A DNA stretch of 48,661 nt from Gammaproteobacteria bacterium (lineage in GTDB: Bacteria > Pseudomonadota > Gammaproteobacteria > GCA-001735895), in the NCBI GenBank assembly GCA_050298595.1, contig JBNKUM010000019.1, forward strand, positions 1-48,661, given 5' to 3'. A program made the position numbers and the translations under genes. This document shows, piece by piece, positions 2,875-24,585 of this stretch. Under the pieces are notes generated by a model. That model saw only the letters and a list, made by a program, of their open reading frames with translations, did not search any database and was not told the DNA's origin. Each line of letters opens with the position of its first letter. Within the stretch, counting starts at the first letter, position 1.

Positions 2875-2888
2875 TTGACCTATATCAA
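2875..2888 (+). promoter_or_regulatory. Putative FNR/CRP-family binding box upstream of the mbx-like operon
   Basis: TTGAC-CTAT-ATCAA versus consensus TTGAT-N4-ATCAA (9/10), 56 nt before the first ATG, followed by an AT-rich TATAAAT stretch at 2910-2916. Confidence 0.6.
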
Positions 2889-2944
2889 GACGGTTTTTTT
2901 TTATTGCAATATAAATACACACTGTCTATCAGAGAACGAATTAC

Positions 2945-3716: not shown

Positions 3717-3719
3717 TCT

Positions 3720-5006: not shown

Positions 5007-5362
5007 TGGAATACATTGCCCTTGCAACTGGCTTTATGCTGATCTTGATTGGGCTCTACGGAGCACTGACCAGGAGCAATATCCTGCGCATGATCGTGGC
5101 TTTCGCTATCGCCAATACCGGTGTCAATCTGGTACTGATATCTGTCGGCTATATCCGCGGTCGTAGTGCTCCCATCATCGATAAAACCCTGGCGGCTAGT
5201 GAAGCCGCATCACGTATCATCGATCCTCTGCCACAGGCCCTGGTTCTGACGGCAATTGTCATTGGCGTGGGCATTACTGCATTGATGCTGGCCTATGCCT
5301 ATAAGCTCTATACCATGAAAGGCAGTCTGGATATCTCCAGGATCAGGGAGCTGAAATGGTAG
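5006..5362 (+). CDS. mbxG: Mrp subunit C (MnhC/NuoK-like); MbxG
   Basis: DPLPQALVLTAIVIG signature. Confidence 0.93.
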   Translation: MEYIALATGFMLILIGLYGALTRSNILRMIVAFAIANTGVNLVLISVGYIRGRSAPIIDKTLAASEAASRIIDPLPQALVLTAIVIGVGITALMLAYAYKLYTMKGSLDISRIRELKW

Positions 5363-8300
5363 ACGCACTGAACATCATTACCACCACGCTGGGCGCGGCA
5401 TTTTTGCTCGGATTACTGCGTGATGAGTGGCGCACCACAGCTTATATCATCACCCTGCTGACCCTGGGATTTATTAGCTGGGTATCCGCCAGCTGGTTAT
5501 GGTTGTTTGTCTTTGATCCGCGCCCACCAGTAGAAATCCTGACTGCTGGCAGTCAACCACCTTTTGCCATCAATCTGCGTATGGGCCTGACGGAATCTGT
5601 TGCGCTATTGATAGTCACCGTCACCGGTCTGTTGTCAAGCATTTATCTGCGTGACACCCTGTTCCGATTAGGCAGACGCGCAATGGCGGTATTGCTGGTA
5701 TTTATTATGGCCATGTGCGGCATTATCATGACGCGCGATATCTTTAACCTTTTTGTGTTTCAGGAACTGATCGTAATCGCCACCGGCGGTCTCGTCTTAC
5801 TTTCCAGTAATAAGCTGTCGCTTGGTGCCGGGTTCAAATACCTGATCGCTTCACAGGTAGTTTCCATTCTGTTACTCGTGGGCATTATCTTCAGCTACCA
5901 CAGCACCGGCACCTTAAACATTGATGGTATGGCGGCACAGTCTGAACTGCTGATCAAAACAGCCCCATTGGCGTTTTTCCTGCTTATCATTGCACTCATC
6001 ATCGAACTCAAACCCTTTCCCGCCAACGGCTGGGCACTAGATATTTATGAATCGGCGCATCCAGCCTTTTCTGCCATTCTTTCCGCCGCCACGGGCACTG
6101 CCAGTCTGTTTATGATTGATAAGGTATTAACCATCGGTGGTGATAGCTGGCTACCACTGGCGACCGGTGTCGGTCTGCTCAGTTTCATTGGTGCCAATCT
6201 GTTTGCTTTGGCACAAAACCATGACCGTCGTCTGCTGGGTTATTCTTCCGTGGCTCAGATTGGCCTGCTGCTAACTATCATTGGCCAGCGTGACATTCTG
6301 GGCGAAAGCTACCTGTTCATTGCCGGTGGTATCCTGCTCGCCCATGCGGTAGCCAAAGCAGGGCTGTTCTGGTTATCCGGTTTAATCAACGAACGTGAAC
6401 TGACTGCCTGGACTGCCTTGCGCGGGCGTCCATTACTAATCTTTGCCTTCGTCACTTTCATTGCGCTATTGATCGGTCTGCCACCTTTCCCCGGGTTTTA
6501 CGCGAAATGGGAGCTGGTGCATATCCTGGCCAGTGAAGGGCGTATCGCGCTTATCGTGCTGATCCTGTTTGGTGCTTTACTTGAAACGGCTTACCTGTTT
6601 CGCTGGTTTGGCCTGATCCTCAAACATGAAGAGGTAGCGCCAACTGCTGGCTGCCCACCACAGAAGGTAAGCGTCATCTATAGCGCGGTCCTGCTCGCCT
6701 GGGGGCTGGCTTTCATCTGGGGTGAACTATCCGGTTTTGGTAACCAGCTATCCGCTATTCCTCTGTTATTTGCATTGCTTTTGTTGCCGTTGGAATGGCT
6801 ACCAGCCAAAATCAAGAATCTGCTCGCCATCATCGGTCTGGTGGCCTGGTTTATAGTTCAATTCCCCGCTTACGATGCGCTGCAATTAATCTTCGCAGCC
6901 ATCATCCTGCCCGGTGGTGCACTGATACTATTGTCCAGCTTCCACAACCAGGGGCGCAGACTGGGATTTTACCCGGCCAGCCTGTGGATGTTTGCCGGCC
7001 TGAGTATGTTGATCGTGGCCAAAGATTCATTCAGCTTCTTCGCCGCCTGGGAAACCCTGACCATCGGTTCCTATTTCCTGATTCTGCGTGGCAAGCATTC
7101 ACAACCGCATGCCCTGTCCTACATTATGTTTTCACTGGGCGGTGCCTTTCTAATGATGCTGGGGTTTGCACTGGCTGCACAGGGCAACCCGATATTCCTG
7201 CTCACCTCTCTGACAGATGCACCCAGCGAATTTGCACCGTGGATATTCATCCTGCTGGCGATTGGTTTTATGACTAAAACCGCCTCCATTGGTGTGCACA
7301 TCTGGCTGCCGGGCGCGCATGCAGAGGCGGAGTCTGACGTATCACCGTTGCTCTCCGGTATCCTGCTCAAAGCGGGGCTGTTTGGTCTATTCGTATTATT
7401 GATAAACATGGGTAAACAACAGCTATACGGCGTGGAACTGACTCATGTATTGCTATGGATAGGAGCCCTATCCGCCCTGCTGGGCAATATGATGGCCATC
7501 TATCAGGAAGATGCCAAGCGCCTGCTGGCTTACTCATCAATTGCACAGATGGGTTATGCGCTGTTTGGTCTGGCCCTGATGAACCATCTGGGCTGGTTAA
7601 TGACGCTGATGTTTGTGGTCAATCACTATATCTATAAGTCGATGTTGTTCCTGTCAATTGGTGGTGTTGCCAAGCGTACCGGAACCAAGGAAATGTACCG
7701 TATGGGCGGGTTGATCACACTGATGCCACTATCCTTCATTGCAGTACTGATCGGTATCATTGCGGTTTCTGGTGTGCCTCCACTGTCCGGCTTCGGTGGG
7801 CGCTGGATTTTTTACAACGCCATTATGAGCGCAGAATACCGCCTGCCGATGGTCATCATCTTTCTCGCTGGCCCGATTGCATTTCTATACCTGTTTCGCC
7901 TGATTCACACTGTCTTTCTTGGCCAGCTCAAGGATGAACACCGCAAGCTTAAGGAAGCCCCTTTCTGGATCATCCTGCCGCAGATGATTTACGTGGCGTT
8001 CCTGATGATTTTTGCTCTGGTACCGGGTCTCGCGTTACGCCGGGTGGATGCCTATATCAGCCAGTTTTTCCCGAATAACGGTTTGAACTGGGAAGGGCTT
8101 ACCATCACCAGCGATTTTGGTTACTGGAGTCCTGTATCGATCATGATTATCATCGGAGTGATTTTTGTCACCCTGTTTAGCTGGCTGTTGTTTGTCAATC
8201 GCCGTGCACAAAAGGTTAAGCAGTTCAATATCGTGTATGCGGCCGAAAGACCCTACCGCCCCGAGACCACACACTTTGCCTGGAACTTTTTTGCACCCTA

Positions 8301-8481
8301 CCGTAAGGCACTGGGCTTTATGACCCAGCCCTTCGTTACCCACTTCTGGGATACAGTTGCAGACTCATTTCACACCATGGCCGAATTGTTTCGTCGGCTA
8401 TATACCGGTGATGGTCAGACCTATGCGGTGCAGTTGCTGGCCTTTGTGGTCGCGGTCTATTTTCTAAGCAGTGGGGTGTAA
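5356..8481 (+). CDS. mbxH: Fused double antiporter-like (MrpD/NuoM/N-type) subunit; MbxH-MbxH' fusion
   Basis: 1041 aa with two consecutive proton-conducting transporter domains: RDIFNLFVFQE / RRLLGYSSVAQIG / PPFPGFYAKW, then FFAAWE / HIWLPGAHAEA / KRLLAYSSIAQMGY / GVPPLSGFGGRW. Confidence 0.88.
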   Translation: MVDALNIITTTLGAAFLLGLLRDEWRTTAYIITLLTLGFISWVSASWLWLFVFDPRPPVEILTAGSQPPFAINLRMGLTESVALLIVTVTGLLSSIYLRDTLFRLGRRAMAVLLVFIMAMCGIIMTRDIFNLFVFQELIVIATGGLVLLSSNKLSLGAGFKYLIASQVVSILLLVGIIFSYHSTGTLNIDGMAAQSELLIKTAPLAFFLLIIALIIELKPFPANGWALDIYESAHPAFSAILSAATGTASLFMIDKVLTIGGDSWLPLATGVGLLSFIGANLFALAQNHDRRLLGYSSVAQIGLLLTIIGQRDILGESYLFIAGGILLAHAVAKAGLFWLSGLINERELTAWTALRGRPLLIFAFVTFIALLIGLPPFPGFYAKWELVHILASEGRIALIVLILFGALLETAYLFRWFGLILKHEEVAPTAGCPPQKVSVIYSAVLLAWGLAFIWGELSGFGNQLSAIPLLFALLLLPLEWLPAKIKNLLAIIGLVAWFIVQFPAYDALQLIFAAIILPGGALILLSSFHNQGRRLGFYPASLWMFAGLSMLIVAKDSFSFFAAWETLTIGSYFLILRGKHSQPHALSYIMFSLGGAFLMMLGFALAAQGNPIFLLTSLTDAPSEFAPWIFILLAIGFMTKTASIGVHIWLPGAHAEAESDVSPLLSGILLKAGLFGLFVLLINMGKQQLYGVELTHVLLWIGALSALLGNMMAIYQEDAKRLLAYSSIAQMGYALFGLALMNHLGWLMTLMFVVNHYIYKSMLFLSIGGVAKRTGTKEMYRMGGLITLMPLSFIAVLIGIIAVSGVPPLSGFGGRWIFYNAIMSAEYRLPMVIIFLAGPIAFLYLFRLIHTVFLGQLKDEHRKLKEAPFWIILPQMIYVAFLMIFALVPGLALRRVDAYISQFFPNNGLNWEGLTITSDFGYWSPVSIMIIIGVIFVTLFSWLLFVNRRAQKVKQFNIVYAAERPYRPETTHFAWNFFAPYRKALGFMTQPFVTHFWDTVADSFHTMAELFRRLYTGDGQTYAVQLLAFVVAVYFLSSGV

Positions 8482-8482
8482 G

Positions 8483-9388
8483 ATGAGTTTTGAATGGATC
8501 CAGATACCCTACTCTCTGTTAACCCTGTTTATCGTGGTGAACTATGGTTTTATTCTAAATGCTTTAATCGCCAAGATTGCCGCCCGCGTTGGACGCCGTC
8601 ATGGTATCCCTATCTGGCAGAACTACCTTGACCTGATCAAAAACTATTCTATCCGTAGTTCGATTACCCACGGTGTCATGTTCTATCTAGGGCCTGTGTT
8701 CAGACTTTCCGGAGGCGTTGGCCTGATACTGTTTGTACCGACTATTTACGGTTCGGTGATGTTCTCTAACCTGTCTTTTGCCGGAGATTTGATTCTGGCA
8801 CTTTATTTTGTTTTCTTCGGTACTCTGGGCATGGCACTGGGTGCGGGTGAAAGCGGCCATCCCTTTGCTGCTATCGGCGTTTCGCGTGGACTGGCACAGG
8901 TGACTGCAGCCGAATTGCCGTTTGCACTTGCCATTTTTTCCATCGCGTTACAATACCAGACTCTGTCGATCACCGATATCGTCGCTGCTCAACAGGGCAG
9001 CTACCTTAACTGGACCCTGTTTACCAACCCATTCGCAGTGACTGCAGCGATGCTGTCTTTTCTCGGTTCAATGATGCGGCCACCATTTGACGTAGTACTG
9101 GCGCCACAGGAAATTCCTATCGGACCACCTACCGAATATCACTCGTCATATCTGGCCATGATGCAAACCAATCGCGCAATCTTCCCGATTGCCAAGATGG
9201 TGGTCTACATGAATCTGTTTTTTGGTGGCGCGCTAAGCTGGCCTGTTTTCTTCCTCAAGGTTTTCCTGATCTATATGGTGTCAGTTGTGGTGGGCGTAGT
9301 CTTCCCTCGCTTCCATGTGGAACATTCGATTCGCTGGTTCCTGGTTTGGGCTGTGCCTCTGGGTATCATTGCGATCATGGTGGTGTAA
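8483..9388 (+). CDS. mbxM: Complex I subunit 1 family (NuoH-like); MbxM
   Basis: KIAARVGRRHG, RPPFDVVLAPQEIPIGPPTEY; about 8 hydrophobic segments; ATG at 8483. Confidence 0.9.
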   Translation: MSFEWIQIPYSLLTLFIVVNYGFILNALIAKIAARVGRRHGIPIWQNYLDLIKNYSIRSSITHGVMFYLGPVFRLSGGVGLILFVPTIYGSVMFSNLSFAGDLILALYFVFFGTLGMALGAGESGHPFAAIGVSRGLAQVTAAELPFALAIFSIALQYQTLSITDIVAAQQGSYLNWTLFTNPFAVTAAMLSFLGSMMRPPFDVVLAPQEIPIGPPTEYHSSYLAMMQTNRAIFPIAKMVVYMNLFFGGALSWPVFFLKVFLIYMVSVVVGVVFPRFHVEHSIRWFLVWAVPLGIIAIMVV

Positions 9389-9391
9389 GTA

Positions 9392-10033
9392 ATGAAACAA
9401 GAATTGCAAAAACGAATCGTCAAAGGGCCTGGTGGCGTCGATATAGAGGTTGAACCACTGAAGGATTATTACTGCGAGGCTCCACCTTCGGTCATGCCAG
9501 CAGCCTACAGCCGTATCGTCGAGGATCTGTTTAACTGGGCGCGCTCGGAATCGATCTGGATTCTCGGTTTCGGTACCGGTTGTGGTGCGATTGAAATGCG
9601 CCCGCTGATGACCCCGCGTTTTGATGCCTACCGCTACGGTATTCAGTGGCGCCCAACCCCACGTCAGGCTAATCTGTTCGTAATTTCCGGTTATCTCTCA
9701 GTGAAAACCCTGAAGCGTGCAATCCGTTCCTATGAACAGATGCAAAACCCCAAATACGTGGTTGGCCTCGGTTCCTGCACCATTAATGGCGGCATGTACT
9801 GGGATTCCTACAACACAATCAAACGTCTTGATGACTACCTGCCCGTCGACCTCTATATCACTGGCTGTATGCCAAGACCCGAGGCACTGTTACAGGGTTT
9901 TATGGATTTGAAAAAAATAATCCGTGCAGGCAATGCAGAAGGTGCGAACCAGTATGCGGAGAATTTTGAATGGTACAAGGCAAACCAGAAACGGGTCATC
10001 AAGGATTGGGATATGCCCGATTATAGTTGGTAG
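9392..10033 (+). CDS. mbxJ: NuoB-family Fe-S subunit; MbxJ/MbsJ
   Basis: GTGCGAIEM, GSCTINGGMYWDSYN, GCMPRPEA, ENFEWYKANQ; recognisably Mbx-type; no tandem CC as in NuoB. Confidence 0.9.
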   Translation: MKQELQKRIVKGPGGVDIEVEPLKDYYCEAPPSVMPAAYSRIVEDLFNWARSESIWILGFGTGCGAIEMRPLMTPRFDAYRYGIQWRPTPRQANLFVISGYLSVKTLKRAIRSYEQMQNPKYVVGLGSCTINGGMYWDSYNTIKRLDDYLPVDLYITGCMPRPEALLQGFMDLKKIIRAGNAEGANQYAENFEWYKANQKRVIKDWDMPDYSW

Positions 10034-10038
10034 CAGAT

Positions 10039-10572
10039 ATGCAGGCACTTTACGACAAACTCAAACAACACTACGCGCTGGGTGAATTTATCCAGCAACG
10101 CTCCAACCTGTGCTTCTTCAATGTGCCACGGGAACACCTGTCATCCTTATTGCTTTATCTGCGTGACGTAGAGGGTTATACCCACCTGGTACTGCTGACA
10201 GCAGTAGACTGGATTGAGCAGGACCAGTTCCAGTTGACCTACCTGGTCAACAATCGTCTGGCAGCAACTGATATTGGATTGCGCGTGATCATCGACCGCA
10301 ATCCAGCGAGTATGGAAAGTATCCATCATCTATGGCCGACCGCCGCAACCTATCAGCGCGAATTGAAAGAAATGTTTGGTATCGATTTCCCCGGCAGTCC
10401 TCGTATTGACGAAGACTTTATTCTCGAAGGCTGGCAGGACATTCCGCCTTATCGACGTGACTTTGACACCTTAAAATACAGTGAAGAAACCTATCGCGAC
10501 CGACCGGGCCGGGTTACCCATGATCCGACTCAACACATGAAGCAACAACTTTACCCGGATGCGGAGGACTGA
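10039..10572 (+). CDS. mbxK: NuoC-family subunit; MbxK
   Basis: TAVDW, SIHHLWPTA..YQRELKEMFGIDFPG, PPYRRDF; ATG at 10039. Confidence 0.9.
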   Translation: MQALYDKLKQHYALGEFIQQRSNLCFFNVPREHLSSLLLYLRDVEGYTHLVLLTAVDWIEQDQFQLTYLVNNRLAATDIGLRVIIDRNPASMESIHHLWPTAATYQRELKEMFGIDFPGSPRIDEDFILEGWQDIPPYRRDFDTLKYSEETYRDRPGRVTHDPTQHMKQQLYPDAED

Positions 10573-10573
10573 T

Positions 10574-11752
10574 ATGGCCTATACCCCTGATCGCAGTCAA
10601 TACCCGCAAAAGAAGTCCGATGGCACGCTTGATATCGATCTCACTTCGGGCAAATACCTGAAACTCTGGCAGGGCCCACAGCATCCCGGTATTACCGGCA
10701 ATATGTCGATTGAACTAACCGTGTGTGGTGACGAGGTTGTCGAAGGTATCACCCATGTCGGTTATCTGCACCGCGGCTTCGAAAAACTGATGGAACGACG
10801 CAGTTTTATCCAGTGCTTTCCTATCGTCTGTCGTATCTGCGTACCGGAACCAGATTTCAATGAGTACTGTTATGCCGCTGCGGTTGAGGAACTGGCGGAT
10901 GTAGAAGTACCCGAACGCGCCAACTGGATCCGCACACTGATCCTGGAGATGGGTCGTATCAACAGTTATCTGATGTATCTGGGTGGTCAATCCGGAGCTC
11001 TGGGTCAGGCGGTAATAGGCCAGTGGGCAACCTATGTACGCGACCTGATGCTGGACCGCTTCGAAGAACTTACCGGAGCCCGTATCTATCACATGTTCAT
11101 CATACCTGGTGGGGTACGCGACGACCTGCCCGTTGGCTTTAAAAAGCGCATGAAAGATACCCTGAAGGAGATTGAAAAAACAATGCAGGATATCTACAAC
11201 GTGATGTTCTGCAATGCGGTCTTCCACAAAAGAACTGTAGGTGTTGGAGTAATAGAAAACCGTTGGCTGGATCGCTACGGTGTTAGCGGCCCCTGCATAC
11301 GTGCGGCCGGTGTGGCGCGTGATGTGCGTAAAGACCAGCCTTATCTGGTTTACCAGCATCTCGACTTTGACCCCGTTATCGGTCACAACTCCGATATTTA
11401 CACCCGAGCAGATGTACGCCGTCGCGACCTGCTGATGTCGGTCGACCTGATCCGACAGATTCTGTCACGCATGCCGGAGCGTAAGGAAGCCATGATGGCG
11501 ACTATTCCTAACGTATTGCACTGGAAGATCCCGCCGGGTGAAACCTATGTGCGAGGTGAATGTTCTCGTGGTGAGTACGGTTATTATCTGGTCACCGATG
11601 GAAGCGGTTATCCGCGACGAGTCAATGTACGAGGCCCCTCCTACACCCATGCGATGGCATTGTTTGAACGCATGGTAGTGAATTGCAATATCGCCGATGT
11701 TGCGGCACTACTGGTGTCTCTACATACCTATCCACCGGAGATCGAACGTTAA
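10574..11752 (+). CDS. mbxL: NuoD-family subunit; MbxL/MbsL (no NiFe site)
   Basis: GPQHPG, GYLHRGFEKL, RICVPE, ECSRGE, VRGPSY, C-terminal HTYPPEIER; GGAGG RBS before ATG at 10574. Confidence 0.9.
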   Translation: MAYTPDRSQYPQKKSDGTLDIDLTSGKYLKLWQGPQHPGITGNMSIELTVCGDEVVEGITHVGYLHRGFEKLMERRSFIQCFPIVCRICVPEPDFNEYCYAAAVEELADVEVPERANWIRTLILEMGRINSYLMYLGGQSGALGQAVIGQWATYVRDLMLDRFEELTGARIYHMFIIPGGVRDDLPVGFKKRMKDTLKEIEKTMQDIYNVMFCNAVFHKRTVGVGVIENRWLDRYGVSGPCIRAAGVARDVRKDQPYLVYQHLDFDPVIGHNSDIYTRADVRRRDLLMSVDLIRQILSRMPERKEAMMATIPNVLHWKIPPGETYVRGECSRGEYGYYLVTDGSGYPRRVNVRGPSYTHAMALFERMVVNCNIADVAALLVSLHTYPPEIER

Positions 11753-11764
11753 GAGCCTGATGCC

Positions 11765-13570
11765 ATGAGTATTCGTAATATCCTTTCTCCATTCACTGCC
11801 TGGAAAAACCTGTTCCGCGACCCAGTCAGTATCGCTGATCCATTTAATGATCGCCCTGGCAGTATGCGCTATCGGGGCTTCCACCAGAACGACATGGATA
11901 AGTGCATAGGCTGTGGCACCTGTGAAGCGATTTGTCAGAATGCCGCTATCGACATGGTTCCAGTCGAAGGCATACAAACCACTAAGGAAGATTCCGGATT
12001 ACGCCCGCATATAGATTACGGTCGCTGTTGCTGGTGTGCGCTGTGCGTGGATATCTGTATGACCGGTTCGCTGACCATGTCCAACGAATACAAATGGATC
12101 GAAAGTGACCCCGACAAGTTTCGCTTCACCCCGGGTGTCGACAAAAAATTCTGGGATCACTCAGCACTCGGTTATCACCGCCCCGAAGGTCATCAGTTAA
12201 GCGGTCGGGTTCGGGTCGAGATGGAAGAAATGGATCCGGAGCAACGGCTCGATTCCTTTGCTGAAATCGTTAAGGGCTACGATGTCGAACAGGCCAAAGC
12301 CGAAGCCGATCGTTGCGTAGCCTGCGGCCTGTGCGTGGCCACCTGCCCTATCCACATGGCGATACCCGATTATATTGCTGCGGTTCGTGCAGGAGACTAT
12401 GAGGAAGGACTACGCCTGTTGTACGACAGTAATCCGTTTTCCCAGGTTTGTGGCCGAGTCTGTACACGCAAGTGCGAAACCTCCTGTGCCGCACGTCATG
12501 AGGGTGATCCAATTGCCATCCGCTGGCTCAAACGTCATATCACCGAGCAGGTGCCTTATGACCGTTATAGAACCATAGTGGGTGAACCCGCCGAAGCGAC
12601 AGGCCGAAAAGTAGCAATCATCGGTGCCGGACCGGCAGGACTAACGACTGCTTTCGACCTTGCTAAAAAGGGCCATAGCGTGACAGTATTTGAATCACGA
12701 AAAAAACCGGGGGGCATGATGCGCTATGGTATCCCTGAATATCGCCTGCCCTATGATCGTCTGGATGCTGATATTAATATGATTCTGTCGTATGGAGTCG
12801 AATTAAAACTCAATACTCAAATCGGTAAAGATATCAGTATGGAGGAGCTTCATAAGCAGTTTGATGCGGTATTACTCGCCAGCGGTCTACATCAGGGACG
12901 ATCCACACGCATACCTGGATCTGAACATTCTAAAACCGTATCAGCCATTGAGCTGTTAAGAAAAATCACCGACAAGTCCCGCTTCGCTGTTCCCCAAAAA
13001 GCAGTGGTCATAGGTGGTGGTAATGTGGCCATGGATATAGCACGCAGCCTGGCCAGATTACAGAAAAAGAAATATGGTGAAATACATGTCACGGTAACGG
13101 CTCTGGAAGATGAGCATCATATGCTCGCAGACGAGGATGAAATACGTGAGGCCAAAGAAGAAGGCTTAACAATTTTACCTGGACGTGGACCGCGCCAGTG
13201 CATCATCGAGAATAAAAAATTAACCGGCCTGGAAACGGTATGCTGTACCTCGATTTTTGATGAAGAAGGGCGCTTTCACCCCACTTATGATGAATCCGAT
13301 ATCTGCATACATGACGTTGACATGGTGGTTGAAGCGATTGGCCAGGCTGCTGACGTCACCTATCTGGGTTATGAAGTAACCGAAGCGCTTGACTGGAATC
13401 GCGGAAGACTGGTCATAGACAGCAACGGTCAAACTGCCGAACCCTGGCTATGGGCCGCTGGAGATATGGTCGAAGGACCAGATGTGGTTCATGCCATAGC
13501 TGCTGGCCATAGAGCCGCCGAGAGCATCCATGCAAGCCTGACAGTAAGTGCGGAGAGATCAAAAGAATGA
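11765..13570 (+). CDS. MbxN/NuoI-type 2x[4Fe-4S] domain fused to a GltD/SudA/DsrL-like FAD-dependent NAD(P)H oxidoreductase
   Basis: RYRGFH, CIGCGTCEAIC, CCWCALCVDIC (NuoI part); then RCVACGLCVATCP, CGRVCTRKCETSC, IIGAGPAG, GGMMRYGIPEYRLP, VIGGGNVAMD, AAGDMV. Confidence 0.9.
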   Translation: MSIRNILSPFTAWKNLFRDPVSIADPFNDRPGSMRYRGFHQNDMDKCIGCGTCEAICQNAAIDMVPVEGIQTTKEDSGLRPHIDYGRCCWCALCVDICMTGSLTMSNEYKWIESDPDKFRFTPGVDKKFWDHSALGYHRPEGHQLSGRVRVEMEEMDPEQRLDSFAEIVKGYDVEQAKAEADRCVACGLCVATCPIHMAIPDYIAAVRAGDYEEGLRLLYDSNPFSQVCGRVCTRKCETSCAARHEGDPIAIRWLKRHITEQVPYDRYRTIVGEPAEATGRKVAIIGAGPAGLTTAFDLAKKGHSVTVFESRKKPGGMMRYGIPEYRLPYDRLDADINMILSYGVELKLNTQIGKDISMEELHKQFDAVLLASGLHQGRSTRIPGSEHSKTVSAIELLRKITDKSRFAVPQKAVVIGGGNVAMDIARSLARLQKKKYGEIHVTVTALEDEHHMLADEDEIREAKEEGLTILPGRGPRQCIIENKKLTGLETVCCTSIFDEEGRFHPTYDESDICIHDVDMVVEAIGQAADVTYLGYEVTEALDWNRGRLVIDSNGQTAEPWLWAAGDMVEGPDVVHAIAAGHRAAESIHASLTVSAERSKE

Positions 13571-14082
13571 GCAAAAAACACAGTTCTGAAGGCAGTAAAG
13601 GCTACGCCAAACTGAAAAAAAAGCAGACGATTGAAGAGATACTTGAAACCGCCATTGGCTTTGAGAGAACGGCGCGTGATTTCTATAGCGAATTATGTGA
13701 CACTGTAAGCAAACCTATACGTGGCTTGATTCAGGAGTTGGCTGATGAAGAAGCTGAGCATTACCGACTGTTTACTGAATTAAAAGAAAGAGCAGATATC
13801 CAACAGCATATCAGCGATAAAATCCAGACACCACCTAATGACCACCGCTTTAGCGACTATCTGAAGCAACCCGACCTGGGCAAGGATCCGAGCGATCAGG
13901 ATATTTTGCTGTATGCTCTGGGGCGTGAACAGGCTGCGATGGAACAGTACTCTGCACTAGCCGAAGAGACACCTGCTGGAGCTATAGCTGATCTATTTCA
14001 GTACCTGGCTCATGAAGAACTTGAACATAAAAATGAGCTTGAAAAGCTCTATTATGAAATGATTCATAAAGGAGGTGTATAA
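13567..14082 (+). CDS. Ferritin-like / rubrerythrin-family di-iron protein
   Basis: AIGFE...FY...LADEEAEH and ALGRE...Y...LAHEELEH duplicated E/ExxH pattern; ATGA overlap with upstream gene. Confidence 0.85.
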   Translation: MSKKHSSEGSKGYAKLKKKQTIEEILETAIGFERTARDFYSELCDTVSKPIRGLIQELADEEAEHYRLFTELKERADIQQHISDKIQTPPNDHRFSDYLKQPDLGKDPSDQDILLYALGREQAAMEQYSALAEETPAGAIADLFQYLAHEELEHKNELEKLYYEMIHKGGV

Positions 14083-14120
14083 CCCGTCTTAGCCTGCCTA
14101 AGCCTGTCTAGACTGGTGAT

Positions 14121-14810
14121 TTATTGCTGTTTTTTATTCACCGCATCTATTCCCTTATGCGGAATAAAGATACCTATTCCCATCAATTGCCTATCACCCA
14201 TTCCCTGTTCCTGTAGCATTAACGATTGAGCCACATCCAGATCACTCACCATGAGTTTTCGGGTTAATACGATGCCACTGGAGGTCTGGTGCGAGAGTAA
14301 CTTACCACTCATCATTTTTTTAACCTGTATCCCCATCTCACGTAACTGTTGCGCCATATTATTTAAAAATAGCGTTTCATCCTCTGTGCCCTCGGTATCC
14401 ATATAGCGTGCAAACAGGGTTGTAAGTCGGCTGAGTTTGCGGGTACGAAAGTCACCGATCTTCAGCGCATGGCCGTGGATATCGAGTGTTTTACCGGTTA
14501 GTGCCCGGGCATCTTCGAGACGACTTTGAGGTAGTCGAATCATCAATTTTGTGCGCCTGGATACGCAGAGCACATCCTGCTCTGGATCATCTGGGCGCAT
14601 CCACCCATGAGCGGATTCGGCAACATGGATTTGATGGATAGCTGCCAGTGGTTCGTCGCCAATCCAGGGAAGGTATTGCTGAATTTGTTGGGATAAAACG
14701 AAGCCATGATCCAGCGGTAATGTTTTGCACTCTATGGAGAACAGCAAATCCTGAACATCTTCATGAAGCTGCTCTGTATCATTATTATCATCATCGTCCT
14801 GCCAATACAT
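14121..14810 (-). CDS. cas6: Cas6-family RAMP endoribonuclease-like protein (Cmx6 / type I-MYXAN-like), orphan
   Basis: LPLDHG, SRRTKLMIRLP, LTGKTLDI and C-terminal Gly-rich loop LQEQGMGDRQLMGIGIFIP (GhGxxxxhGhG); ATG at 14810, 2 nt after the upstream stop. Confidence 0.82.
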   Translation of the reverse strand: MYWQDDDDNNDTEQLHEDVQDLLFSIECKTLPLDHGFVLSQQIQQYLPWIGDEPLAAIHQIHVAESAHGWMRPDDPEQDVLCVSRRTKLMIRLPQSRLEDARALTGKTLDIHGHALKIGDFRTRKLSRLTTLFARYMDTEGTEDETLFLNNMAQQLREMGIQVKKMMSGKLLSHQTSSGIVLTRKLMVSDLDVAQSLMLQEQGMGDRQLMGIGIFIPHKGIDAVNKKQQ

Positions 14811-14812
14811 GT

Positions 14813-15001
14813 TCAACACACCGATGTGAATGTCGCTTCCAGTCGATCTTCCCAGTCAGGCGGGGTATCTGAGTATGGAGGTTTTATATCCATACGAAAA
14901 AATCGTTCACCCGCTGCTGCTCGTCTGGATATCTCTTCCTTTAAATCCTCAAATGATTCCATTTCAGGGTTTTGTAATAAAATTTCGCTTAACCACAGCA
15001 T
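14813..15001 (-). CDS. Small acidic protein (62 aa) between tauD-like and cas6 genes
   Basis: MLWLSEILLQ...FRMDIKPPYSDTPPDWEDRLE; GAGG RBS; tightly packed with neighbours. Confidence 0.8.
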   Translation of the reverse strand: MLWLSEILLQNPEMESFEDLKEEISRRAAAGERFFRMDIKPPYSDTPPDWEDRLEATFTSVC

Positions 15002-15034
15002 ATAAAGACCTCGGGTATAAATTCTAATGTCTAA

Positions 15035-15916
15035 TCAATGGATATTGATTCGATTGTAATAACGCGCGCGATAGAAAACGCGTTTGCTATCAGGACTATC
15101 AGTAAATCCACTACGTGTGTGCAATACATTATTATTGATAACGCCCTCGCCGGCATTAAGGCGATAGCGTATATGATAGGGGGAGTCTAATTCCAGATAC
15201 TGCTCCAGACAAGCCAGAGCTTCGCGGGTCAATCCATCATCGGCCCATATTATATTGCGCTTTCTTTTACTATATCGCATAGCTAGAGCATGGTCTTGCT
15301 CCTGTAGAAACACAGCACTACAGGTCTGGGGACGGATTAGCACACCATTCTCTATGTTTTCGGGTATACACATAACCTGAGGCTGAGACAGGGCTTTGAT
15401 AAATTCCGGATTTTGATTGCGCAGATGGATATACAGCATATCAGGATCCAGTAACTGGTTCTCTCCTCCTTCAGCAGCCGGTTGCTCGCAATGCAGCACC
15501 ATCGCCAGTACCCGCTGATGTAAAGGATTATAGTATCCATCGGTATGCCAGCCGATCGCTTTATTCGAATAAGGGATATACTGATGTGCGCGGCCATTGT
15601 CCTGTACGGTGAGCTTTGTGGTTCTATCTTCGCGCGCACAGAGATTTTTATCCAGTTCATGCAGCCCCATTTGTTGACCTATATACTTTACAGCATCCAG
15701 GTGATTGTCTATCTCACCAGCCATGCGGTATAAAACAAAGTTATAGGCACGGATGTGCTCATCGATAATATTTAATGCCAAATCATCGATAGTACCGTCA
15801 TTCTGGATATCTATAATGAGAGGAAAATCATTTGATTTTCTCTTTTCATAAGCAGCCTGCTTGTATTCAACCCATTGGAGGTAGGCTGCTTCATCGTTTA
15901 AATCCAGGTGTCCCAT
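15035..15916 (-). CDS. TauD/TfdA-family Fe(II)/2-oxoglutarate dioxygenase-like protein
   Basis: WHTDGYYN (HxD), LHCEQPAAEGGENQLLD, NNVLHTRSGF (distal His and Arg). Confidence 0.88.
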   Translation of the reverse strand: MGHLDLNDEAAYLQWVEYKQAAYEKRKSNDFPLIIDIQNDGTIDDLALNIIDEHIRAYNFVLYRMAGEIDNHLDAVKYIGQQMGLHELDKNLCAREDRTTKLTVQDNGRAHQYIPYSNKAIGWHTDGYYNPLHQRVLAMVLHCEQPAAEGGENQLLDPDMLYIHLRNQNPEFIKALSQPQVMCIPENIENGVLIRPQTCSAVFLQEQDHALAMRYSKRKRNIIWADDGLTREALACLEQYLELDSPYHIRYRLNAGEGVINNNVLHTRSGFTDSPDSKRVFYRARYYNRINIH

Positions 15917-16142: not shown

Positions 16143-17393
16143 ATGGCAAAGTATGATACTCCAATGCTTGACGAGCTTGAAAACGGCCCATGGCCCAGCT
16201 TTATTTCAGGCATCAAACGTTTACGCGACGATCACCCGGAAAAACGTATTAATGAAGTTGCCGGCAGCCTGTTAGGCCAGCTGGAACATTCTTACGAAAC
16301 TCGTAAAGGTTACTGGAAAGGCGGTACTGTTTCTGTATTCGGTTACGGTTCAGGCATTATTCCTCGCTTCTCTGAAGTAGGTAAGGCTTTCCCGGAATCT
16401 AAAGAATTCCACACTGTTCGCGTTCAACCACCTGCGGGTAATCACTACACGACTGGTATGTTACGTCAGTTAGCTGATAGCTGGGAAAAGCATGGTTCAG
16501 GCCTGGTAACCTTCCACGGACAAACCGGTAACATTATGTTTATTGGTGTTGATACCGAATCTACCCAGCATTTCTTTGATGAAATCAATGATTACGGCTG
16601 GGATCTGGGTGGTGCTGGTCCTTGTGTACGTACAGGTATGTCCTGTGTCGGTGCTTCACGCTGTGAACAGTCTTGCCTTGATGAGCAAAGAGTACACCGC
16701 TCATTGCAGAACAACTTCACCGATGATGTTCACCGCCCTGCTCTGCCATATAAATTCAAATTCAAAATCTCTGGTTGTGGTAATGATTGTCAGAACGCCA
16801 TTGAACGCTCTGATTTTGCAGTTATCGGCACCTGGCGCGATGACATGAAGGTTAACCAGGAAGCCTTCAAGGGCTATCTCGATACTAAAGGTCGCCAGTA
16901 CATTATCGATAATGTAATCACCCGTTGCCCAACTCAGGCCTTAAGCCTGGCTGATGACGATGCGCTGGTTGTTGAAAACCGCAACTGTGTTCGCTGCATG
17001 CATTGCCTGAATGTTCTGCCTAAAGCGCTCTCTCCTGGAGATGACAAGGGTGCAACTATTTGTATTGGTGGAAAGCGTACACTGAAGATTGGTGATTTGA
17101 TGGGTACGGTTGTAGTGCCATTCAAAAAGCTGGATACAGAAGAAGATTACGAAGAAATCGTTGAGTTGGCTGAAGAAATCATCGACTTCTGGGCTGAAAA
17201 CGGTCTGGAACACGAACGTTGTGGTGAGATGATCGAACGTATTGGTCTGGCTAATTTTCTGGAAGGTATTGGCGTTGATGTTGATCCGAATATGGTTAAC
17301 AACCCTCGCCAAAGCTCCTACGTCCGTATGGATGAATGGGACCAGGAAGCCGAGAAATGGTTTGAGCGTAAAGCAGAAGAAGCTAGCGCCTAA
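16143..17393 (+). CDS. dsrA: Reverse dissimilatory sulfite reductase alpha subunit
   Basis: TPMLDELENGPWPSF, YWKGG, CVRTGMSCVG, YKFKFKISGCGNDC, CVRCMHC; AAGGAG RBS. Confidence 0.98.
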   Translation: MAKYDTPMLDELENGPWPSFISGIKRLRDDHPEKRINEVAGSLLGQLEHSYETRKGYWKGGTVSVFGYGSGIIPRFSEVGKAFPESKEFHTVRVQPPAGNHYTTGMLRQLADSWEKHGSGLVTFHGQTGNIMFIGVDTESTQHFFDEINDYGWDLGGAGPCVRTGMSCVGASRCEQSCLDEQRVHRSLQNNFTDDVHRPALPYKFKFKISGCGNDCQNAIERSDFAVIGTWRDDMKVNQEAFKGYLDTKGRQYIIDNVITRCPTQALSLADDDALVVENRNCVRCMHCLNVLPKALSPGDDKGATICIGGKRTLKIGDLMGTVVVPFKKLDTEEDYEEIVELAEEIIDFWAENGLEHERCGEMIERIGLANFLEGIGVDVDPNMVNNPRQSSYVRMDEWDQEAEKWFERKAEEASA

Positions 17394-17455
17394 GCGCTGG
17401 ATTCAACTCTTCTTTCCGATTTTTTAAAATAATTTATAAACTATAGGTTAAAGAT

Positions 17456-18529
17456 ATGTCAGACGCTCCACGTCCACCTATTGAATCAGGCTGTCCTGAT
17501 GGTTTCCAATACATGCATCCCATGATGCGTAAACACTATGGCAACTGGGATTATCATGAAGATCCTCAGCCAGGTGTCCTGAAACACGTTGCCAAGAATG
17601 GTGATGCGCTATACACCGTTCGTGCAGGTACTCAACGTATTCTTGATGTATACACATTGCGCCTGTTATGCGATATCGGCGATGAATTCGCTGACGGTCA
17701 TGTTCACTTTACTATTCGTAGTAACATGGAATTTATGGTTAGCGATGAATCTCGTGTGCAACCTCTGATTGAAAAGCTTGAATCCCATGGCTTTGTTGTT
17801 GGCGGAACTCGTAACTCAGTTGCGATGATCTCTCATACTCAGGGCTGGTTACATTGTGATATCCCTGGTACTGACGCCTCTGGTGTTGTTAAGTCCATGA
17901 TGGATGAGCTGATCGGCGAATTCAAAAACTGGAACATGCCTAACCGCGTTCATTTGACTACTTCCTGCTGTCAGATTAACTGTGGTGGTCAGGGTGACAT
18001 CGCTATTAATGTTCAGCACACCAAGCCGCCCAAGATTAACCACGATCTGGTTGCCAACATCTGTGAACGTCCTTCTGTTGTGGCACGTTGCCCGGTTGCT
18101 GCGATTCGGCCTGCAATGGTTGATGGCAAGCCATCTCTGGAAGTTGATGAGAAGAAATGCATCTGCTGTGGTGCCTGTTTCCCTCCTTGTCCTCCAATGC
18201 AAATCAATGATGCAGAGCATTCAAAACTGGCTATCTGGGTTGGTGGTAATCACTCCAATGCTCGTAGCAAACCAACTTTCCAGAAGTTAGTGGCTGCTGG
18301 TATTCCAAACAACCCTCCTCGTTGGCCTGAAGCTACTGCAATCGTTAAAAAGATTCTGAAGGTTTACAAAGAAGACGCTAAGGATTGGGAGCGTATCAAT
18401 GACTGGATCGATCGTGTGGGCTGGCCTCGTTTCTTCGAACTGACTGAACTGCCGTTCACCAAGTTCCATATCGATAACTGGCGTGGTGCTCGCAATAGTC
18501 TTAATGCATCTGCTCATATCCGTTTCTAA
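17456..18529 (+). CDS. dsrB: Reverse dissimilatory sulfite reductase beta subunit
   Basis: HTQGWLHC, SCCQINCG, CICCGACFPPC, NNPPRWPE, RVGWPRFF. Confidence 0.98.
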   Translation: MSDAPRPPIESGCPDGFQYMHPMMRKHYGNWDYHEDPQPGVLKHVAKNGDALYTVRAGTQRILDVYTLRLLCDIGDEFADGHVHFTIRSNMEFMVSDESRVQPLIEKLESHGFVVGGTRNSVAMISHTQGWLHCDIPGTDASGVVKSMMDELIGEFKNWNMPNRVHLTTSCCQINCGGQGDIAINVQHTKPPKINHDLVANICERPSVVARCPVAAIRPAMVDGKPSLEVDEKKCICCGACFPPCPPMQINDAEHSKLAIWVGGNHSNARSKPTFQKLVAAGIPNNPPRWPEATAIVKKILKVYKEDAKDWERINDWIDRVGWPRFFELTELPFTKFHIDNWRGARNSLNASAHIRF

Positions 18530-18546
18530 GGGACTGAGGAATATAG

Positions 18547-18939
18547 ATGAAATTTGCTATTCAAATTAACGAAGGGCCTTTTACCCATCAGGCTGCAGAT
18601 ACTGCTTATCAGTTTACCAAGGCAGCACTGGAGAATGGTCATGAAATCTTCCGTGTGTTCTTTTACCACGATGGCGTAAATAACGGCACCATGTACGGTG
18701 TACCACCTGTTGATGATCGCAATGTTTCGGCCATCTGGTCGGAACTTGCTGAGAAATATGACCTTGATCTCGTGGTCTGTGTGGCGGCGGCTCAACGTCG
18801 CGGCATCATGGATGAAGATGAAGCCAAGCGTCACGGCAAAGGTGCATCCAATATCGCCCCTGGATTTCGTATTTCAGGATTGGGTCAGTTGATCGAAGCC
18901 GGTATTCAGGCTGATCGTCTTCTGGTATTTGGTGATTAG
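18547..18939 (+). CDS. dsrE: Sulfurtransferase DsrE (TusD family)
   Basis: VFFYHDGV, active-site VVCVAAAQRRG, SGLGQL. Confidence 0.97.
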   Translation: MKFAIQINEGPFTHQAADTAYQFTKAALENGHEIFRVFFYHDGVNNGTMYGVPPVDDRNVSAIWSELAEKYDLDLVVCVAAAQRRGIMDEDEAKRHGKGASNIAPGFRISGLGQLIEAGIQADRLLVFGD

Positions 18940-18948
18940 GAGTTAGTT

Positions 18949-19356
18949 ATGTCAGAAACAAAAAAATTCGTATATGTAAACAGAAAAGCTCCTTACGGTA
19001 CCGTTTACGCTTTGGAATCACTGGAAGTTGTTCTGATCGGTGCAGCTTTTGAACAGGAAGTTCAGTTGTTATTCATTGATGATGGTGTTTATCAGTTAAC
19101 CAAGGGCCAGTCTACGGAAGGTGTTGGAATGAAGAACTTTTCCAAGACTTACGCAGCACTGGGTGACTATGATGTTAATCAGATTTATGTCGATGAGCAG
19201 TCACTGAAAGATCGTGGCCTGACCATGGATGATCTTCAGGCATTAACCTATGAAGATGAAGACGACGATTATGCAGAGAAAAGTTCTATGCATCTGGTTA
19301 ACCGAGAACAGTTAGCTGATTTAATCAGCAATGCTGACGTGTTGTTAAATTTCTAA
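18949..19356 (+). CDS. dsrF: DsrF (TusC family)
   Basis: RKAPYGTVYALESLE, FIDDGVYQL. Confidence 0.97.
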   Translation: MSETKKFVYVNRKAPYGTVYALESLEVVLIGAAFEQEVQLLFIDDGVYQLTKGQSTEGVGMKNFSKTYAALGDYDVNQIYVDEQSLKDRGLTMDDLQALTYEDEDDDYAEKSSMHLVNREQLADLISNADVLLNF

Positions 19357-19367
19357 GGAGAACTGAT

Positions 19368-19679
19368 ATGTCAACATTACACACTGTAAACAAGTCGCCT
19401 TTTGAAAGAAATTCACTCGACACCTGTTTGTCTCTGGTCAGCAATGATTCAACTGTATTGCTAATTGAAGATGGTGTTTCTGGTGCATTACAAAATACGA
19501 CAGCCAGCTCAAGCATTTCGGATGCGATGAGTAAAGGAGTAAAATTCGCCGTTCTGGGTGAAGATCTGGGTGCTCGTGGTCTATCAACAGACCGAGTTTT
19601 AGATGGTATATCTGTAGTTGATTATGCCGGATTTGTTCAGCTAGCAGCTGATCACGACAACGTTCAAAGCTGGTTGTAA
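19368..19679 (+). CDS. dsrH: DsrH (TusB family)
   Basis: LHTVNKSPF, LLIEDGV, DLGARGL, VDYAGFV. Confidence 0.97.
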   Translation: MSTLHTVNKSPFERNSLDTCLSLVSNDSTVLLIEDGVSGALQNTTASSSISDAMSKGVKFAVLGEDLGARGLSTDRVLDGISVVDYAGFVQLAADHDNVQSWL

Positions 19680-19727
19680 ACGTTTAATTTTTTAAGCTTT
19701 ATTTAAAGCAAATTTTGGAGAAATATC

Positions 19728-20060
19728 ATGCCTTTAGAAGTGAATGGTAAGAGTTACGAAACTGATGAAGAAGGTTACCTGGCTAACCTGAATGAGTGGA
19801 ACGAAGAAGTTGCTGCAGCATTAGCTGCTGCTGATGATGCAGAACTGACTTCAAGCCATTGGGAAGTCATTAACTTCCTGCGTGAATACTACGAAGAGTA
19901 TCAAATTGCTCCTGCAGTACGCGTTTTAACCAAAGCCATTGGTAAAAAACTGGGTAAAGACAAAGGAAACAGCAAGTACCTGTACGAACTGTTCCCTTAC
20001 GGCCCAGCAAAGCAAGCCTGTAAATACGCTGGCTTGCCTAAGCCTACTGGTTGCGTGTAA
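19728..20060 (+). CDS. dsrC: DsrC sulfur carrier with both C-terminal cysteines
   Basis: LFPYGPAKQACKYAGLPKPTGCV. Confidence 0.98.
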   Translation: MPLEVNGKSYETDEEGYLANLNEWNEEVAAALAAADDAELTSSHWEVINFLREYYEEYQIAPAVRVLTKAIGKKLGKDKGNSKYLYELFPYGPAKQACKYAGLPKPTGCV

Positions 20061-20068
20061 CGCATACC

Positions 20069-20208
20069 TGACACTATTGCTGCCAGTTCACTCAGGTGTT
20101 CTGGCAGAGTGTCACCAAGCAACTTATCTGTTGTTTGAGGAAGTACAGAATGTCTCGGTGTCATTCTTAAAAACAATAATTTTGAATATCAAAATTCTTT
20201 ACTTCCTG
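20069..20208 (+). other. Structured dsrC-dsrM intergenic region (stem-loops without U-tract)
   Basis: tgacact/ctgccag...ctggcag/agtgtca (20069-20114), then aggaagtacagaat...attctttacttcct (13/14 complementary). Confidence 0.6.
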
Positions 20209-20234
20209 AACCAACAAGCCTTCTGAGAGATTGA

Positions 20235-20972: not shown

Positions 20973-20982
20973 GAGAAAATAC

Positions 20983-24566: not shown

Positions 24567-24585
24567 TCAATTATCGGAATTATCT

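Follow-up and report, generated by a model that had tools for sequence, protein, structure and literature searches.

An NfnB/GltD-like flavoprotein fused to the MbsN-like subunit of a gammaproteobacterial MBS/Mbx-type operon, and its candidate role in linking NAD(H) to sulfane sulfur

Introduction

Which soluble electron carrier serves a bacterial MBS/Mbx-type complex whose MbsN-like subunit continues into a flavoprotein, and where do the electrons go? This question is raised by contig JBNKUM010000019.1 of the gammaproteobacterial assembly GCA_050298595.1 (5.49 Mb, 98.6% complete), of which we analysed positions 1 to 48,661 on the forward strand (48,661 nucleotides; called the window below). 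A gene at 11765-13570 joins a NuoI/MbsN-like domain and an NfnB/GltD-like flavoprotein in one polypeptide, and is the last redox gene of a tightly packed 12-gene operon of the MBS/Mbx type (2945-13570). In the archaeal MBS (formerly Mbx), ferredoxin feeds the clusters of MbsN and polysulfide is reduced at a proximal cluster held by three cysteines (Yu 2020). For the complex encoded in the window we put forward a reading to which we give about an even chance: the fusion would be the pyridine-nucleotide subunit of a bacterial, Mrp-linked, ion-translocating complex of the MBS/Mbx type, which would transfer electrons between NAD(H) and sulfane sulfur.

Domains and cofactor sites of the fusion protein

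The gene and the parts of its product are listed here; residue numbers are those of the fusion protein (aa, amino acids).

11765-13570, + strand: fusion gene, ATG start, open frame, 601 aa, MbsN/NuoI-like plus NfnB/GltD-like
Residues 1 to about 115: MbsN/NuoI-like domain, 8 Cys
Residues about 116-160: conserved linker
Residues 163-262: Fer4_20 domain, 8 Cys
Residues 287-292: fold for flavin adenine dinucleotide (FAD), GAGPAG
Residues 417-422: NAD fold, GGGNVA, with ALE at residues 446-448
13013-13111, + strand: NAD(P)-binding beta-alpha-beta unit, with GGGNVAMD, helix, insertion LQKKKYGE, strand HVTVTA and then L447-E448-D449

Pfam searches with the fusion protein returned Fer4_7 (residues 46-101, E 4.6e-11), Fer4_20 (163-262, E 1.8e-27) and Pyr_redox_2 (282-577, E 4.6e-30). 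Among solved structures, residues 6-110 matched MbsN of P. furiosus MBS (6u8y_N, E 6.4e-21), and the N-terminal domain also matched bacterial and mitochondrial NuoI/TYKY chains and the family TIGR01971; both CxxCxxCxxxC(P) motifs of the NuoI/MbsN family are present in it, as is the family's N-terminal segment. Residues 151-593 matched NfnB of Thermotoga maritima (4ylf_B, E 4.6e-71) and also NfnI-L, Xfn, StnC-type chains and GltD. Two [4Fe-4S] cluster motifs, FAD fold, NAD(P)H fold and overall fold place this part in the GltD/NfnB type, and the first cluster motif of the module is a plain CxxCxxCxxxCP.

An alignment of 35 fused homologues showed invariant cysteines in the MbsN-like domain (C47/50/53/57 and C88/91/94/98) and in the flavoprotein (C184/187/190/194 and C229/233/237/241), and GAGPAG and GGGNVA are invariant or nearly so. 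The AlphaFold2 model built on this alignment reached a predicted local distance difference test score (pLDDT) of 89.2 and a predicted template-modelling score (pTM) of 0.84. Its flavoprotein part superimposed on NfnI-L (5jca_L) and NfnB (4ylf_B) with a template-modelling score (TM) of 0.87 and on GltD (6s6s_E) with 0.84, each on the target, and the Foldseek match to 5jca_L had an E-value of 4.3e-45 (TM 0.87). The E-values and the conservation of the cysteines are far beyond chance. Judged by its motifs, the protein would carry two [4Fe-4S] clusters in the NuoI/MbsN-like domain, and two more, FAD and a dinucleotide site in the NfnB/GltD-like module; it has the N-terminal segment that seats members of this family on NuoH- and NuoD-like subunits.

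An earlier note, made from the letters of this DNA alone, had read a NuoI-type N-terminus with two [4Fe-4S] clusters and a GltD-type Fe-S/FAD protein as one polypeptide, and the Pfam and structure matches bear this out. The motifs that it had picked out are also in place, GGGNVAMD at residues 417-424 (nucleotides 13013-13036) and TVTALED at 443-449 (13091-13111). Its label "GltD/DsrL-like" stands for the GltD/NfnB part, while "DsrL-like" is too loose, the module being closer to NfnB and only 29% identical to the DsrL of the window. Membership of the DsrL family itself was considered and rejected. DsrL proteins are encoded with dsrAB and have a GltD-like core, a linker and, at the C-terminus, a ferredoxin domain with two clusters; the fusion has no such C-terminal domain, the 29% identity extends over 449 residues, and a separate dsrL is present in the window.

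The operon core is of the MBS type

The other genes of the operon precede the fusion gene on the same strand.

2945-3463, + strand: MnhE-like (MbsA counterpart), Pfam PF01899
3456-3716, + strand: MnhF-like (MbsB counterpart), Pfam PF04066
3720-4058, + strand: MnhG-like (MbsC counterpart), Pfam PF03334
4055-4312, + strand: MbhD-like (MbsD counterpart), Pfam PF13244
4275-5006, + strand: MbhE/MnhB-like (MbsE counterpart), Pfam PF04039 and PF20501
5006-5362, + strand: NuoK-like (MbsG counterpart), Pfam PF00420
5356-8481, + strand: double antiporter-like open reading frame (ORF), 1041 aa (MbsH' and MbsH fused), Pfam Proton_antipo_M in two stretches
8471-9388, + strand: NuoH-like anchor (MbsM counterpart), Pfam NADHdh, E 1.2e-41
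9392-10033, + strand: NuoB-like subunit of the proximal [4Fe-4S] cluster (MbsJ counterpart), 6u8y_J match
10027-10572, + strand: NuoC-like (MbsK counterpart), Pfam Complex1_30kDa, E 1.3e-23
10559-11752, + strand: NuoD/hydrogenase-large-subunit-like (MbsL counterpart), without a NiFe site, 6u8y_L match

Mrp-type genes and NuoH-, NuoB-, NuoC-, NuoD- and NuoI-like genes thus stand together in one operon, as they do in MBS/Mbx operons. The frames of the six small Mrp-like membrane genes (2945-5362) overlap or abut. NCBIfam models divide the 1041-aa ORF into a NuoN-like part (residues 7-426) and a NuoM-like part (459-1035), that is, modules of the NuoL/M/N and MrpD type.

Among solved structures, the best match of the NuoB-like subunit was the MBS chain 6u8y_J (E 4.9e-65, against 2.3e-24 for MBH 6cfw_J), and that of the NuoD-like subunit was 6u8y_L (E 4.1e-96, against 6.8e-39 for MBH 6cfw_L); in alignments both are about 50% identical to MbsJ and MbsL. 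C64, C129 and C159 of the NuoB-like subunit are the counterparts of MbsJ C28, C93 and C123, and the position of MbsJ C25 is occupied by Gly. In the NuoD-like subunit, the Cys of RICVPEPD (C85 of MbsL) is kept and the C385 counterpart is Tyr; the alignment to 6u8y_L showed none of the NiFe-ligand cysteines and no CxxC pairs. C28, C93 and C123 are described as the sole ligands of the proximal cluster of MbsJ, with the open Fe as the proposed site of polysulfide reduction, and C25, C85 and C385 as dispensable for MBS activity (Yu 2020; 2021 review). By its sequence, the core of the operon is of the MBS (formerly Mbx) type, because the matches to MBS chains far exceed those to MBH and because of the cysteine pattern of the NuoB- and NuoD-like subunits, and the proximal cluster of the NuoB-like subunit would have an open Fe here too. 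One MBS feature is absent, namely a free-standing MbsN fed by ferredoxin, as the MbsN-like domain runs on into the flavoprotein. The expected soluble partner would accordingly be a pyridine nucleotide, not ferredoxin.

A scan of contigs for the fusion gene gave 24 related loci, including Sedimenticola, Chromatiales, Celeribacter, Aliiruegeria and one metagenome-assembled genome (MAG) of Cloacimonadota. By tblastn, NuoD-, NuoC- and NuoB-like genes lie directly upstream of the fusion gene in all 22 loci with upstream DNA, and the Mrp-like genes are present in the same order in all 18 loci that extend that far. The 1041-aa double antiporter ORF was matched over 96-100% of its length in all related loci that cover the region. 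A scan of 2300-14300 detected 11 promoter-like sites (15.9 expected) and 21 terminator-like sites (9.5 expected), none of the latter directly after the last + strand gene. Of the sequencing runs listed as holding this DNA, 12 were of DNA and none of RNA, which tells neither for nor against expression.

A diiron protein accompanies the fusion

The last + strand gene of the locus follows the fusion gene.

13567-14082, + strand: rubrerythrin-like diiron four-helix-bundle protein, 171 aa, Pfam Rubrerythrin, E 3.9e-14

Its start codon and the stop codon of the fusion gene share the letters ATGA, and the two genes are translationally coupled. The 171-aa protein has no rubredoxin domain; its diiron ligands (E33, E62, H65, E121, E151 and H154) are invariant in 20 sequences, and among solved structures it comes nearest to ferritin-like diiron proteins, TM1526 among them (1vjx_A, E 3e-10). 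The gene lies downstream of the fusion in all 21 loci with downstream DNA, and the other three loci end in or at the gene. Beyond it, the 21 downstream ORFs of six loci included no shared neighbours and no sulfur-related genes. One representative of 764 aa (P0125) is a triple fusion, in which the MbsN-like domain and the NfnB-like flavoprotein are followed by a C-terminal rubrerythrin-like domain (residues 602-754, matching residues 15-167 of the rubrerythrin-like protein with a BLASTP E-value of 2e-9).

A predicted complex of the fusion and the rubrerythrin-like protein scored 0.79, whereas the best of three controls scored 0.02. This level was reached by 116 of 157 solved complexes and by 2 of 215 mismatched pairs, a calibration that holds only roughly here, as own alignments were used. 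The runs agreed in at least 77% of contacts, with a pLDDT of the partner of at least 74. The predicted interface lies on a beta-meander and a hairpin of the NAD domain (residues 379-386, 477-478, 497, 504-508 and 525-549) and includes L447. We know of no solved complex of a like kind, and memory is therefore an unlikely source of the prediction. The model supports, without showing it, binding of the partner to the NAD domain, and the rubrerythrin-like protein is likely an accessory subunit.

A second redox partner, predicted on the flavoprotein away from the Fe-S chain, also invites a reading in which the FAD bifurcates the electrons of NADH: the docked diiron protein, as the high-potential branch, would receive one and the low-potential Fe-S chain the other. 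The core would then receive a ferredoxin-like drive, which would explain why the full pump set of a ferredoxin-driven enzyme is retained, and the nearest solved relatives of the module (NfnB, NfnI-L and StnC) are indeed bifurcating subunits. We nevertheless regard this as very improbable. It is speculation; the non-bifurcating GltD (6s6s_E) has the same fold, the partner is predicted on the meander of the NAD domain and not placed near the flavin, and the oxidant would be consumed stoichiometrically.

NAD(H) or NADP(H)

The nucleotide preference of the fusion can be approached through the second dinucleotide fold. In NfnB, Y310, R311 and R312 bind the 2'-phosphate of NADP(H), a role that the earlier note had given to YRR in NfnB and DsrL-2 and that Loeffler 2020 describes for both. 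According to the same source, DsrL-2, which has YRR, uses NADP(H) only, and DsrL-1 proteins with S/T-x-x triplets instead of YRR prefer or require NAD(H): AvDsrL-1A prefers NAD(H), and CtDsrL-1B is inactive with NADP(H). In the HMMER alignment to 4ylf_B, V309-Y310-R311-R312 of NfnB pair with T445-A446-L447-E448 of the fusion, so that the exact counterpart of YRR is ALE and the NADPH-type motif is absent, as had been read from the letters.

The AlphaFold2 model has a strand at residues 413-416, a helix at 420-437 and the strand beta-2 at 442-446. Since modelled beta-2 ends at residue 446, L447 and E448 would mark its C-terminal end, the place at which a Rossmann fold recognises the adenosine ribose. 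An acidic residue at this place usually favours NAD. A word-indexed homologue search gave 7998 matches, and in the query and all of the 120 homologues listed E448 is conserved (110 ALE, 6 TLE, 3 AME, 1 AVE and 1 CLE, the query counted). The residues that follow are mostly acidic or neutral, without a conserved basic residue, in the alignment of 35 sequences. The x-L-E triplet (xLE) goes with an insertion of 6-7 residues, LQ[KR]xx[YH]G, before beta-2, at the place where DsrL-1A has an extension. Because A-L-E, with its invariant Glu and an acidic loop, stands in the place of YRR, we judge it probable, at about two in three, that the fusion prefers NAD(H).

Several points count against this preference. 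It is built by analogy with DsrL-1 and on the general rule for Rossmann folds, and the PDB matches included no xLE-type enzyme whose structure is solved and whose specificity is known. Among 150 representatives at 50% identity, most of them unfused, 109 have x-L-E and 28 have YRR; the YRR/xLE split is therefore a general feature of the superfamily, and xLE is not peculiar to the complex. The diiron partner, whose predicted interface includes L447, could also shape the ALE motif and could affect the adenosine site or cover it. A literature search, which covered journals other than subscription journals, found no paper that assigns NADH or NADPH to the fused subunit.

With this in mind, the fusion might have the same role in the complex and use NADP(H) or both nucleotides, ALE and the insertion reflecting the docking of the partner or lineage drift. 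Besides the position of L447 in the interface, this would agree with the mostly basic residue of the insertion, which could reach the phosphate, and with AvDsrL-1A, which Loeffler 2020 describes as preferring NAD(H), not as inactive with NADP(H). It would also agree with the variation within the family: of 12 deep fused representatives, seven combine xLE with the insertion, four (P0126, P0131, P0137 and P0143) have YRR and no insertion, and one has TAE, so that the family is not bound to one nucleotide. A quick tree required at least two YRR/xLE changes, a count that is weak because of long branches. However, Glu448 does not vary in the query and the 120 homologues listed and is followed by an acidic loop, 2 of the 35 aligned sequences have Met in place of the basic residue of the insertion, xLE is common in unfused relatives without such a partner fusion, and CtDsrL-1B, also without YRR, is inactive with NADP(H) (Loeffler 2020). 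We consider the use of NADP(H) or of both nucleotides a minor possibility, though one to be taken seriously, and keep NAD(H) as the preferred substrate below.

Distribution and earlier descriptions of the fusion

The 120 matches listed are about 600 aa long, with 63-95% identity and 97-100% query cover; among them are proteins of Thiohalocapsa marina, Magnetovirga frankeli, Magnetospira thiophila, Gallionella, Sideroxyarcus, Nitrosomonadales and Rhodobacterales. An exhaustive search of 50%-identity representatives listed 12 more clusters with end-to-end matches to the query. The closest public record is a gammaproteobacterial MAG (L001) with 97% identity. The search for the domain architecture across taxa that the earlier note had proposed thus finds the fusion in many lineages, among them Rhodobacterales, Gallionellaceae and the Cloacimonadota MAG.

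The same note had suspected that the fusion is already known, rightly so. Degli Esposti 2015 (PMC4758237) describes "mbx-like" operons of Thermotoga and proteobacteria in which a gltD-related flavoprotein is attached to NuoI or takes its place and which often end with a rubrerythrin, and the NCBIfam model NF010590 (PRK13984, "putative oxidoreductase") covers the full architecture. NF010590 matched residues 2-593 of the fusion (profile positions 7-607 of 611) with 886.5 bits, below the equivalog cut-off of 946, which makes the protein a relative and not an exact equivalog; in 14 named control genomes, a set that includes Thermotoga maritima, the cut-off was exceeded in one. A twelve-gene mbx operon in T. 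maritima was reported by Noll et al. 2008, and Mitchell et al. 2024 count a "putative Mrp-Mbx complex" of Endoriftia among the complexes whose direction is not known. The gene of the window is a typical member of a widespread and already described fusion family. To these descriptions the present analysis adds the predicted three-Cys cluster of the NuoB-like subunit, the YRR/xLE split in the family, the co-occurrence with dsrA described below and the modelled docking of the diiron partner.

In the relevant passages of Degli Esposti 2015 (PMC4758237) and in the description of Mbx in Matheus Carnevali 2019, the electrons run the other way: the complex would be a ferredoxin:NAD(P)+ oxidoreductase, as in the older Mbx model, with the flavoprotein as its output and no sulfur compound involved. 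NfnB-type modules do exchange electrons with ferredoxin in Nfn (5jca, 4ylf). Against this, MBS reduces polysulfide at the three-Cys cluster (Yu 2020), whose environment is conserved here, and the ferredoxin end, MbsN, is occupied by the fused module, with no second site for a soluble carrier evident. The whole membrane arm and the NuoD-like chamber would moreover be left without a substrate. We therefore hold this older model to be unlikely for the complex of the window.

Association with dsr genes

The distribution of the fusion was compared with that of dsrA in a sample of 301 genomes taken evenly from the class, which includes three unpublished genomes (G039, G141 and G296) that carry neither gene. 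A full-length match to NF010590 was detected in 16 of the 301 genomes, from 14 families (one match being split over two contigs); in the other genomes NF010590 was matched only by ordinary GltD-like genes. One genome (G215) has two full-length copies of the fusion, C12:32192-33976 and C153:2629-4407 (803 and 672 bits). All 16 carriers have dsrA (E <= 1e-80), compared with 75 of the 285 other genomes, kin not being independent in these counts. Endoriftia expresses its "putative Mrp-Mbx complex" alongside genes for sulfur globules, the reductive tricarboxylic acid cycle and hydrogenase (Mitchell et al. 2024).

The window itself contains a complete oxidative-type dsr cluster (16143-28868, + strand) in an Allochromatium-like order, dsrABEFHCMKL followed by O-, P-, N- and R-like genes, with an unassigned ORF of 232 aa at the place expected for dsrJ. 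The DsrL encoded there (22611-24566) shows the DsrL-1A pattern, with S-L-F in place of YRR and a long insertion. A conserved linkage of mbx and dsr was considered and rejected: tblastn detected neither dsrA nor dsrB in any of the 24 related loci, and the other loci have no dsr genes within 10 kb. The distance of 2.1 kb between the fusion locus and dsrA in the window is incidental, because no dsr genes lie near the other loci and the genes after the diiron gene are not conserved.

If NAD(H) is one substrate, the other need not be sulfane sulfur. A different acceptor could be used at the NuoB/NuoD-like site, or the diiron protein could act as an NADH-fed reductase of peroxide or oxygen. Aerobic or facultative Rhodobacterales and iron oxidisers are among the carriers, the diiron protein matches the core subunits in conservation and is a predicted binder of the flavoprotein, the C385 Cys of MbsL is lost, and similar doubts about sulfur exist for a different, Hyf/Mbx-like cluster in non-sulfidic Comamonadaceae. 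On the other side, the NuoB- and NuoD-like subunits share about 50% identity with MbsJ and MbsL, with the three-Cys motif kept, dsrA is present in 16 of 16 carriers of the class sample, C85 and C385 are dispensable for MBS catalysis (Yu 2020), and a peroxidase would need no ion pump of 12 genes. We think a substrate other than sulfane sulfur rather unlikely and return to sulfane sulfur for the proposed reaction.

Proposed reaction of the complex

In the proposed complex, electrons would move between NAD(H), FAD, the two [4Fe-4S] clusters of the flavoprotein, the two [4Fe-4S] clusters of the MbsN part and the three-Cys proximal cluster of the NuoB-like subunit. If it works like that of P. furiosus MBS, the proximal cluster would reduce sulfane sulfur, as polysulfide or persulfide, while the Mrp-like arm would translocate ions. 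The small diiron protein would probably dock on the NAD domain as an accessory subunit. The potentials of NADH (about -320 mV) and of polysulfide/sulfide (about -260 to -270 mV) differ by only about 50-60 mV, so that the reaction would be close to equilibrium and reversible. In the forward direction, NADH would reduce zero-valent or stored sulfur when oxidants are lacking (anoxia); in the reverse direction, sulfide would reduce NAD+ at the expense of the ion gradient. Sulfur-storing bacteria respire sulfur, and the enzyme behind that respiration is unexplained; sulfur reduction with NADH under anoxia would fit both this respiration and the co-expression in Endoriftia.

A more specific form of the proposal would see in the complex a reversible, ion-coupled sulfane-sulfur:NAD+ oxidoreductase of rDsr-type sulfur oxidisers, whose diiron subunit protects or tunes it at oxic-anoxic interfaces. 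This we offer as a speculation with little probability as yet.

The transfer of electrons between NAD(H) and sulfane sulfur meets objections from energetics, literature and distribution. The step from NADH to polysulfide yields only about 10 kJ per two electrons under standard conditions, far below the 42 kJ of the ferredoxin-driven enzyme. The latter value is quoted in the MBS literature (Yu 2020; 2021 review). That the full pump set and the Mrp module are retained agrees equally well or better with reverse operation or a different acceptor. Sulfane reduction has been shown only for the archaeal enzyme (Yu 2020), and in the reading of Degli Esposti 2015 (PMC4758237) the module is where a ferredoxin oxidoreductase delivers its electrons to NAD(P)+. 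The literature found contained no measured activity for the fused family, the data for T. maritima being limited to quantitative reverse-transcription PCR of mbxA. Finally, the carriers include Rhodobacterales (Celeribacter, Aliiruegeria), which lie outside the class sample in which dsrA was searched.

If the complex is NAD(H)-specific and reduces sulfane sulfur, it would tie the NADH pool directly to zero-valent sulfur. This would bear on the anoxic respiration of sulfur globules and on how chemolithoautotrophs pay for NADH. In the more speculative form given above, running in reverse would cost about one translocated ion per electron pair and provide NADH for CO2 fixation far more cheaply than complex I driven backwards; running forward, the complex would be the long-sought enzyme of anoxic respiration on stored sulfur. 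Bacterial complexes of the Mbx/MBS-like kind are common and occur also in Rhodobacterales, Gallionellaceae, magnetotactic bacteria and the Riftia symbiont.

Other features of the window

Between the mbx and dsr operons, a lone cas6 (Pfam Cas6, E 1.8e-56) and a gene for a TauD-family dioxygenase lie on the minus strand (14121-15916); the pair is also present in the 97%-identical record L001. The stretch 35603-48661 has a lower guanine-cytosine content (0.35-0.40) than the rest of the window (0.43-0.52). On its minus strand lie genes for a carbamoyltransferase, exosortase EpsH, a GNAT-type acetyltransferase, a hexapeptide transferase, an LPG-synthase-like membrane protein and a GDSL lipase, so that it looks like an exopolysaccharide or PEP-CTERM island. 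An ORF of 876 aa (35603-38233) had no Pfam match.

Comparison with known systems

The mbx-like operons of Thermotoga and proteobacteria (Degli Esposti 2015, PMC4758237) share the fusion of NuoI with a gltD-related protein and, often, the trailing rubrerythrin. The passages on these operons write NAD(P)+, take the module as an output and do not discuss the difference between YRR and xLE.

With P. furiosus MBS, the operon of the window has in common all 13 subunit types in the same kind of operon, the lack of a NiFe site, three Cys ligands at the proximal cluster and an MbsN-like domain with eight cysteines. In contrast to MBS, this domain bears an NfnB/GltD-like flavoprotein of about 450 residues, MbsH' and MbsH form one ORF of 1041 aa, the counterparts of C385 (L) and C25 (J) are lost, and an extra diiron rubrerythrin-like gene is present. 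The hosts differ as well: MBS belongs to a hyperthermophilic archaeon, the operon described here to a mesophile-type, dsr-carrying gammaproteobacterium.

The flavoprotein module has the fold of GltD (6S6S) and of NfnB/NfnI-L (4YLF_B, 5JCA_L), the large subunit of the NADH-dependent ferredoxin:NADP+ oxidoreductase (TM 0.84-0.88 on the target; 33-36% identity to NfnB). Like these proteins, it has two N-terminal [4Fe-4S] clusters, FAD and a second dinucleotide fold. It differs from them in having ALE for YRR and an insertion of 6-7 residues before beta-2, and it is fused to a subunit of the complex I type instead of being paired with NfnA or GltB.

DsrL-1 (Loeffler 2020), which serves oxidative rDsrAB as a partner linked to NAD(H), is likewise a GltD/NfnB-like Fe-S flavoprotein that lacks YRR and has an insertion at the corresponding position. 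The DsrL of the window, which shares 29% identity with the fusion over 449 residues, has S-L-F where the fusion has A-L-E. In DsrL-1 the ferredoxin domain is C-terminal and the gene belongs to a dsr operon, whereas in the fusion a NuoI-type ferredoxin domain stands at the N-terminus and the gene is part of an mbx operon.

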